From: Eledone cirrhosa
Taxonomy: Eukaryota
Direction of reading: 5' to 3'
Assembly (NCBI GenBank): GCA_964016885.1
Contig: OZ024762.1
Location: forward strand, 13,268,001 to 13,332,000
Length of the DNA: 64,000 nucleotides
The translations under genes were made by a program, and so were the position numbers. This document shows positions 12,377 to 13,253 of this stretch, piece after piece. How positions within the stretch are numbered: the stretch's first letter is position 1; each line of letters begins with the position of its first letter. Under the pieces are notes generated by a model. The model was not told the DNA's origin. It did not search any database and was given only the letters and a program-made list of their open reading frames with translations.

Positions 12377-12565
12377 TAAAAGGAAAAGAAATTGGTGACA
12401 TATTTTTCCCAGTGAAAAATAGTTTAATTAGGAATAAGTAAAAATTAGTAATAAGTATTGGTTAGTATTCAGTTTTAGTTTTAATTCTTTTACCGGTTGC
12501 GCATTTCTAATGCTTTTCAAAAATAATTTTGAGATAGAGCGCCCGTGATGTTTGCTCTAATCTGC

Positions 12566-12600
<35 letters not shown>

Positions 12601-12701
12601 GCAATGAAATACCTATGACCGTTGGTAAATCACTGATGAGGGACTCATTTTATAACATGTTATCCATGTGCAACCATGCAGTATTCTTCTCCCCATTTTT
12701 T

Positions 12702-12732
<31 letters not shown>

Positions 12733-12842
12733 TGTTGCATTTTCGATTTCATCTTTCGATTTCATTTTTTCCTTATACTCTCACTCGGTTATTTCTCATT
12801 TTATTAAAAAAACCTCACTTTCTAATATATATATATACATAT

Positions 12843-12904
<62 letters not shown>

Positions 12905-12911
<7 letters not shown>

Positions 12912-13253
12912 GTGAGGTTTTTTTAACAAAATGAGAAATAACCGAGGTGTCCTACACGAGTGAGAGTATAAGGAAAAAAGATGAAATCGAAAATGCAACT
13001 GGTGTCTTTCTTTTTTTACATATATATTTATTTGGTTCCTTTACCGGTTTCGCATTTCTTCTGCTTTTCAAAAGTAGAGTTGAGATGGAGGGTCTGTGGT
13101 TTTTCTTACATCTGTGAGAGAAACCACAGACCCTCCATCTCAACTCTACTTTTGAAAAGCAGAAGAACTGCGAAACCGGTAAAGGAACCAAATAAAAATA
13201 TATTTAAAAAAAAAAAGACTCCAGTTGCATTTTCGATTTCATCTTTTTTCCTT

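Follow-up and report, generated by a model that had tools for sequence, protein, structure and literature searches.

U3-A8 hammerhead motifs in truncated ends of an abundant Eledone cirrhosa repeat, probably remnants of a Penelope-like element

A window of 64,000 nucleotides from Eledone cirrhosa (contig OZ024762.1), rich in microsatellites and in A and T, contains three motifs that, judged by their letters, are of the hammerhead type with the Watson-Crick pair C3-G8 exchanged for U3-A8. These motifs lie in 5'-truncated, partly inverted ends of a high-copy repeat, and U3-A8 is the consensus of that repeat family and not a private double mutation. The origin that best accounts for them, with a probability of roughly 0.8, is that they mark remnants of the 3' terminal repeat (pLTR) of a Penelope-like element (PLE); what is left at the locus is, in all likelihood, no more than transposon debris.

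Three motifs with a U3-A8 core

A preliminary description of this DNA had named the best-formed copy, on the forward strand, and a diverged copy on the reverse strand, and the letters of both were confirmed exactly, including the GCAA that replaces GAAA in the latter; a third copy, at 13071-13042 on the reverse strand within a fold-back, had been overlooked (Table 1). The features of a type I hammerhead are present, namely a 3-bp helix I, a helix II of 3-5 bp, G10.1-C11.1, A15.1-U16.1 and GUA as the NUH triplet. Within the core N3-U-G-A-N-N8-A...G-A-A, U3-A8 occurs in 3/3 copies and GAAA is intact in 2/3, and the Watson-Crick 3-8 pair proposed earlier is borne out in all three copies as well as in the family consensus. 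The diverged copy is likely inactive because its A13 has changed to C, and we infer that it represents a second subfamily.

The motif search allowing U3-A8 that had been suggested at the outset gave three matches in the window and none in any of 100 shuffles. A descriptor with positions 3 and 8 left free recovered eight window motifs (five C-G, two U-A and one U-U, the 12520 copy being absent because of its GCAA), seven of them Watson-Crick at 3-8, against a mean chance rate of 0.033 per window (60 dinucleotide shuffles in 200-nt blocks). Rfam gave no hammerhead match in the whole window at the gathering threshold, and none among the 69 matches obtained for 11500-14000 with E up to 10, which were rejected as hairpin families attracted by the palindromes and (TA)n. 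This miss is not specific to U3-A8, as the C3-G8 motifs of the window were likewise unscored. The earlier remark that searches limited to CUGANGA undercount such elements holds for PLE hammerheads, and the point had already been made in 2014 (PMC4209133).

Table 1. Positions of the motif copies and of the repeat around them, numbered from the first letter of the window.
Feature	Position	Strand	Details
Best-formed minimal type I hammerhead motif, U3-A8	13149..13184	+	motif core 13152-13181; stem I CTT 13149-13151 with AAG 13182-13184 (3 bp); TTGAAAA 13152-13158 (U3 13152, U4, G5, A6, A7, A8 13157, A9); 4-bp helix II, GCAG 13159-13162 / CTGC 13168-13171; GAAA 13172-13175 (G12 13172, A13, A14, A15.1 13175); CCGG 13176-13179; TA 13180-13181 (U16.1 13180, A17 13181); palindromic helix III ACCGGT 13175-13180; predicted cut 3' of A17, position 13181
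Second motif copy	13039..13074	-	core 13042-13071; U3 13071; fourth helix II pair G·A; predicted cut 13042
Diverged motif copy	12488..12523	-	core 12491-12520; U3 12520; stem II GCATT/AATGC; stem I TTT/AAA; GCAA for GAAA (A13 to C); predicted cut 12491
Fold-back	12967..13256		arms 12967-13110 and 13113-13256, separated by 2 nt; arms unlike at 7 of 144 positions (95%)
One-arm extension reaching (TA)n	12905..12966	-	62 nt
Hammerhead-less fragment of the same element end	12734..12824	+	14-nt deletion
Diverged element fragment carrying the 12520 motif	12374..12570	-	74-nt stretch 78% similar to the main family
(TA)n tract at the long-arm end	12825..12905		inferred insertion target
Other (TA)n tracts	12254-12373, 12570-12598, 13253-13291		

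A truncated and inverted repeat end beside (TA)n

The two arms of the fold-back carry the + copy (13152) and the - copy (13071), which thus lie head-to-head on opposite strands. The tandem dimer envisaged earlier does not describe this pair, and no head-to-tail tandem hammerhead units occur at this locus; the retroelement context of the motifs had likewise gone unseen. The long arm ends 136 nt past the predicted cut, the other arm stops at (TA)n, and the whole is best read as a 5'-truncated element end together with its inverted copy. The hammerhead-less fragment and the long arm face each other across a single (TA)n tract, and the diverged fragment reaches (TA)n 117 nt past its predicted cut. 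All ends of the repeat here adjoin (TA)n, yet such tracts, together with the 15 nt on either side of them, take up 34% of the window. The window has other fold-backs built alike. Of nine picked by hand, with boundaries set by eye, eight have one end at most 4 nt from (TA)5+, while 62-200 nt separate the opposite end from such a tract; two of the nine hold canonical C3-G8 hammerheads, with long arms that measure 140 and 134 nt from cut to (TA)n, as compared with 136 nt in the U3-A8 fold-back.

Public sequencing runs cover 13100-13256 in depth (2,619 contigs in X1 and 1,499 reads in X9). At 13113, 46 contigs and 269 reads depart into upstream sequence of a different kind; more loose ends fall within 13116-13147, and the median upstream run-on is as much as 95 letters. 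Three opposite-strand joints were found in reads at other breakpoints. Since contigs and reads match in thousands and run on upstream, the family is abundant and longer than the window copy; and since reads continue upstream of 13113 elsewhere, the window copy is an inverted one that lost everything beyond some 40 nt ahead of the motif.

A fold-back DNA transposon of the MITE-like kind, whose arms would be hammerhead-like by accident, is a highly improbable source. A near-perfect palindrome of 290 nt within TA-rich DNA fits such an element, as do the missing Rfam hammerhead match and the weak covariation, but its centre is variable, most reads departing at 13113 and inversions lying at other breakpoints. 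Moreover, the arms are unequal, the motif is kept in a copy that has no fold-back and whose flanks are about 53% alike, and the chance rate of such motifs is 0.033 per window. That the fold-back was produced by sequencing or assembly may practically be set aside: the DNA is highly repetitive and the whole stretch is spanned by no X1 record, but the arms differ at 7/144 places, at 13120 the - arm has the family base and the + arm a private one, and opposite-strand joints appear in independent reads.

Conservation of the core and of the helices

In a read comparison that is blind to relatives more than 20% diverged, any C3-G8 form included, no other base is listed at 3% or above at 13152-13157 in four runs; at A9, G reaches 3% in X9. 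This comparison left out 13190-13256 as repeat, and the small-share runs X4 and X5 contributed 2 and 1 contigs only, too few for use. The diverged copy is identical to the main family at 16/17 core positions and at 32/60 ungapped flanking positions (Fisher p 0.0017), a contrast that is partly circular because this copy was found via its core. Variable sites in X1 number 0/17 in the core versus 7/60 outside (p 0.34), so that core conservation may only reflect a young family. X9 is a reduced-representation run whose reads begin at few sites; the core damage recorded in it is G12A at 7.6%, 13177 C>T at 12.5%, 13179 G>T at 6%, and the A9G already mentioned.

The compensatory changes are weak evidence for the helices. 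Double compensatory changes had been described in both helices, and one such pair per helix does stand, with both-sided changes in 2/14 pairs across the three copies, namely a C-G to U-A exchange in helix I and a second exchange in helix II; but with three sequences the covariation score was reached in 114/500 shuffles. The 83% of paired cells was reached in 19/500. The variable helix II pair is G-C in the + copy, G·A in the second copy and U-A in the diverged one. In family data C or T stands at its 5' base, 13162, in 13% of X1 depth and in 54% of X9 reads. No change is listed at the 3% limit for the partner 13168, and hence this fourth pair is mostly broken, not compensated, in those copies. 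The motif is better supported by other data: besides the comparisons of the core given above, a variant at 13148 adds a fourth stem I pair in place of an A·G mismatch (30% of X1 depth, 6% of X9 reads), and C11.1 to U retains a wobble pair (5% in X1, 29% in X9).

Predicted folding and cleavage

The palindromic helix III is predicted to pair two molecules. The + motif folds in the model at +2.4 kcal/mol as a monomer versus -15.5 as a dimer sharing the 6-bp ACCGGU helix, the modelled intermolecular ACCGGU duplex has -8.3 kcal/mol, and helix III reaches a probability of 0.77-0.86 for this copy. Within the modelled dimer ensemble helix II forms with a probability of about 0.63 and helix I with just 0.06-0.07. 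Shuffled sequences fold about as stably as the real one (z -0.5 to -1.0). An intact motif is predicted to cut weakly, only as a dimer, or with protein help, and measurable cleavage by the family motif as a dimer is somewhat more likely than not. For the S. mansoni minimal motif, weak, dimer-dependent cleavage has been reported (PMC4209133), and for the hammerhead of the Anolis Poseidon element protein-assisted cleavage (PMC11167929).

At the locus itself, hammerhead activity in vivo is very improbable. A transcript across the fold-back is modelled as a single hairpin of -220.5 kcal/mol, and the locus is probably inert because this hairpin would bury the ribozyme, the - arm copy has a modelled helix II probability of 0.04, and the diverged copy has lost A13.

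A separate observation concerns 13149-13159: with U3-A8 in place, the 5' core strand reads as an interrupted palindrome, and a duplex of two such strands (-6.2 kcal/mol) might compete with the ribozyme fold.

It is conceivable, if on the whole unlikely, that the family motif is dead, a PLE-descended hammerhead whose U3-A8 core has decayed and been spread passively; this would concern activity and is compatible with a PLE origin. Both core changes are transitions toward AT, but together they restore a Watson-Crick pair, and of the eight descriptor motifs in the window seven have a Watson-Crick pair at 3-8. The 3-bp stem I seldom forms in the model and the 5' core strand is self-complementary (-6.2 against -8.3 kcal/mol for helix III), points that must be set against the retention of the core across diverged copies and the statement that such cores are active in vitro (Perreault 2011, PMC3088659). 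Insertion of the Anolis PLE in vitro, for its part, has been reported to be unaffected by hammerhead mutants (PMC11167929).

Origin in a Penelope-like element

The position of the motif argues for a PLE, as the predicted cuts are 136 and 117 nt short of (TA)n, and so does the layout, in which the 5' truncation point varies and an inverted copy lies next to the truncated end, as seen in the fold-back, the loose ends and the three opposite-strand joints. PLEs of the Hydra and Neptune clades have (TA)n targets and a hammerhead near their 3' end (Craig et al. 2021, PMC8557442), and (TA)n targets are given there for Neptune, Hydra and Naiad PLEs. The same source describes Penelope-13_HM with an inverted 5'-truncated copy and a PLE tail at one end only. 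The window repeat is like the Hydra and Neptune PLEs in its (TA)n, its 3'-proximal hammerhead and its inverted truncated copy. Its extension, too, is on one side only, but at 62 nt it exceeds the 30-40 bp of the published PLE tail, which tells against a PLE.

[quoted passage not shown] In the parent element, a tandem transcript would carry two hammerheads that join via ACCGGU in a shared 6-bp helix III; U3-A8 would replace C3-G8, and the RNA would be cut 3' of GUA, probably with the assistance of protein.

Against this origin, no match to a PLE reverse transcriptase or GIY-YIG domain was found by Pfam in 78 of the 150 listed frames, which come from 14 of the 107 non-repetitive segments of the window; apart from matches that were due to chance or weakly zinc-finger-like, the search returned a zf-RVT at 17342 (+), below threshold. 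A read-through frame with a YIG-like peptide, at 54597-54896, was rejected, having no protein match and deriving partly from a TA run. The zf-RVT match (E 0.00077) belongs to a frameshifted frame at 17343-18331 (+), probably the 3' part of a non-LTR retrotransposon.

An improbable alternative to descent from a PLE is a hammerhead repeat of the retrozyme or SINE type, non-autonomous, using PLE machinery and never in possession of a reading frame of its own. No PLE protein is linked to the family in the searched frames, its upstream continuation is known as a 30-letter loose-end consensus only, and a 2026 preprint derives animal non-LTR retrozymes from PLE pLTRs. Retrozymes, however, are head-to-tail tandems, whereas the copies here are head-to-head with no tandem at the locus; the loose ends extend upstream by as much as 95 letters in the median; and the mechanism by which such a repeat spreads would equal that of a PLE.

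Scans with positions 3 and 8 partly free gave one viral and 49 metagenome loci, of which 0/50 share the family flanks; the best BLAST match among them spans 34 nt, the motif itself (E 0.003). Nine U3-A8 loci among the 50 were dropped, stem I having at most 1 bp in all of them. Nine metagenome loci (L002, L004, L007, L008, L011, L029, L030, L038 and L046) combine a well-formed C3-G8 type I motif with ACCGGU and GUA, with flanks unrelated to the window family.

Relation to known U3-A8 hammerheads

The U3-A8 exchange, whose novelty the preliminary description implied, had already been reported. Perreault 2011 (PMC3088659) noted that C3-G8 covaries to U3-A8 in several natural hammerheads, its statement of in vitro activity citing Przybilski and Hammann 2007; the relevant passages tie none of these examples to PLE ends or to the window family. 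Among PLEs, the U3-A8 core was found through the S. mansoni Cercyon element, with about 1,300 descriptor matches in Schistosoma (Cervera and de la Peña 2014, PMC4209133), and the alignment in that paper holds two S. mansoni U3-A8 rows as well as a Saccoglossus U3 row that has G8. In the hammerhead table of Craig et al. (PMC8557442), U3 occurs in 0/34 rows, and in many of the Hydra rows helix III is odd-centred.

The window motifs are like the Cercyon hammerheads (PMC4209133) in U3-A8, a short helix I, G10.1-C11.1 and a palindromic helix III. Cercyon motifs are mostly single dispersed copies, with dual ones on opposite strands, as here, the dual hammerheads being reported 100-700 bp apart. In contrast, helix II has 4 bp here versus 6-8 in Cercyon, helix III here has a 2-nt palindromic insert, GUA stands here versus GUU, and no Cercyon reverse transcriptase is linked to the repeat. 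The S. mansoni(4) row reads UUGAAAA plus one A, whereas no extra base follows A9 in the window motifs. The shrimp and Saccoglossus(2) rows of the same alignment share A9 without an extra base and A at the cut site, but have C3-G8, and the Chara PLE families Chlamys-2 and -5 (PMC8557442) have an identical ACCGGU helix III, likewise an even palindrome, but again C3-G8. What sets the window family apart is the combination of U3-A8 with a 4-bp helix II, GUA as the triplet, ACCGGU in helix III and an A9 that no extra base follows, and each of these traits of build occurs in published C3-G8 PLE motifs (PMC4209133, PMC8557442). Searches of the literature on hammerheads, octopus included, and on PLEs yielded no description of this family, which Lünse et al. 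(cited in PMC6765202) may list; family-specific words are absent from the supplement of Craig et al. (PMC8557442), though its line breaks may conceal matches.

The repeat adds another animal family with the rare U3-A8 core and, if active, could serve in its many natural copies to test whether cleavage is tuned by U3-A8 and what role hammerheads have in PLEs. It could further be proposed, as an unlikely reading, that an abundant PLE lineage kept U3-A8 through a split so deep that the flanks are only about half alike, independently of Schistosoma and in a different build, with a selected brake as a possibility. As the 5' core strand becomes self-complementary, U3-A8 may act as such a brake until the protein of the element binds, and thousands of natural copies in one genome would make this testable.

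Other hammerheads and repeats in the window

Several further hammerheads lie in the window. The fold-back at 25660-26030 holds two canonical C3-G8 minimal hammerheads (25840+ and 25758-), with a near-palindromic helix III and a 90-nt one-sided extension, and a related motif lies at 41108-. A second canonical family, with ATGCGCAT as its helix III, is represented at 60120-60435, where the motifs 60334+ and 60310- are 24 nt apart, and at 55470+, where the end of the copy is split by a long (TA)n. Within 44933-45333, a C3-G8 motif at 45025- has a partner near 45247+ and carries an extra U after A9 and a U before GAAA; with its odd-centred helix III, this motif resembles the Hydra-clade rows of PMC8557442. 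Two hammerhead-like candidates, 55070+ and 60904+, came from a looser scan that had no shuffle control.

Four (TA)n-ended, one-sided fold-backs yielded no hammerhead (34550-34833, 57490-58005, 58578-58700 and 61290-61400) and are possibly the ends of PLEs that have no hammerhead or another ribozyme. A short repeat is found in three copies (12086-12158, 31628-31812 and 56672-56857), which, from a tRNA B-box-like stretch, we take to be probably a SINE. Finally, a repeat end of about 120 nt occurs in six copies (10420, 43254, 45431, 58598, 60741 and 61342) that are 85-97% alike, each adjoining (TA)n.
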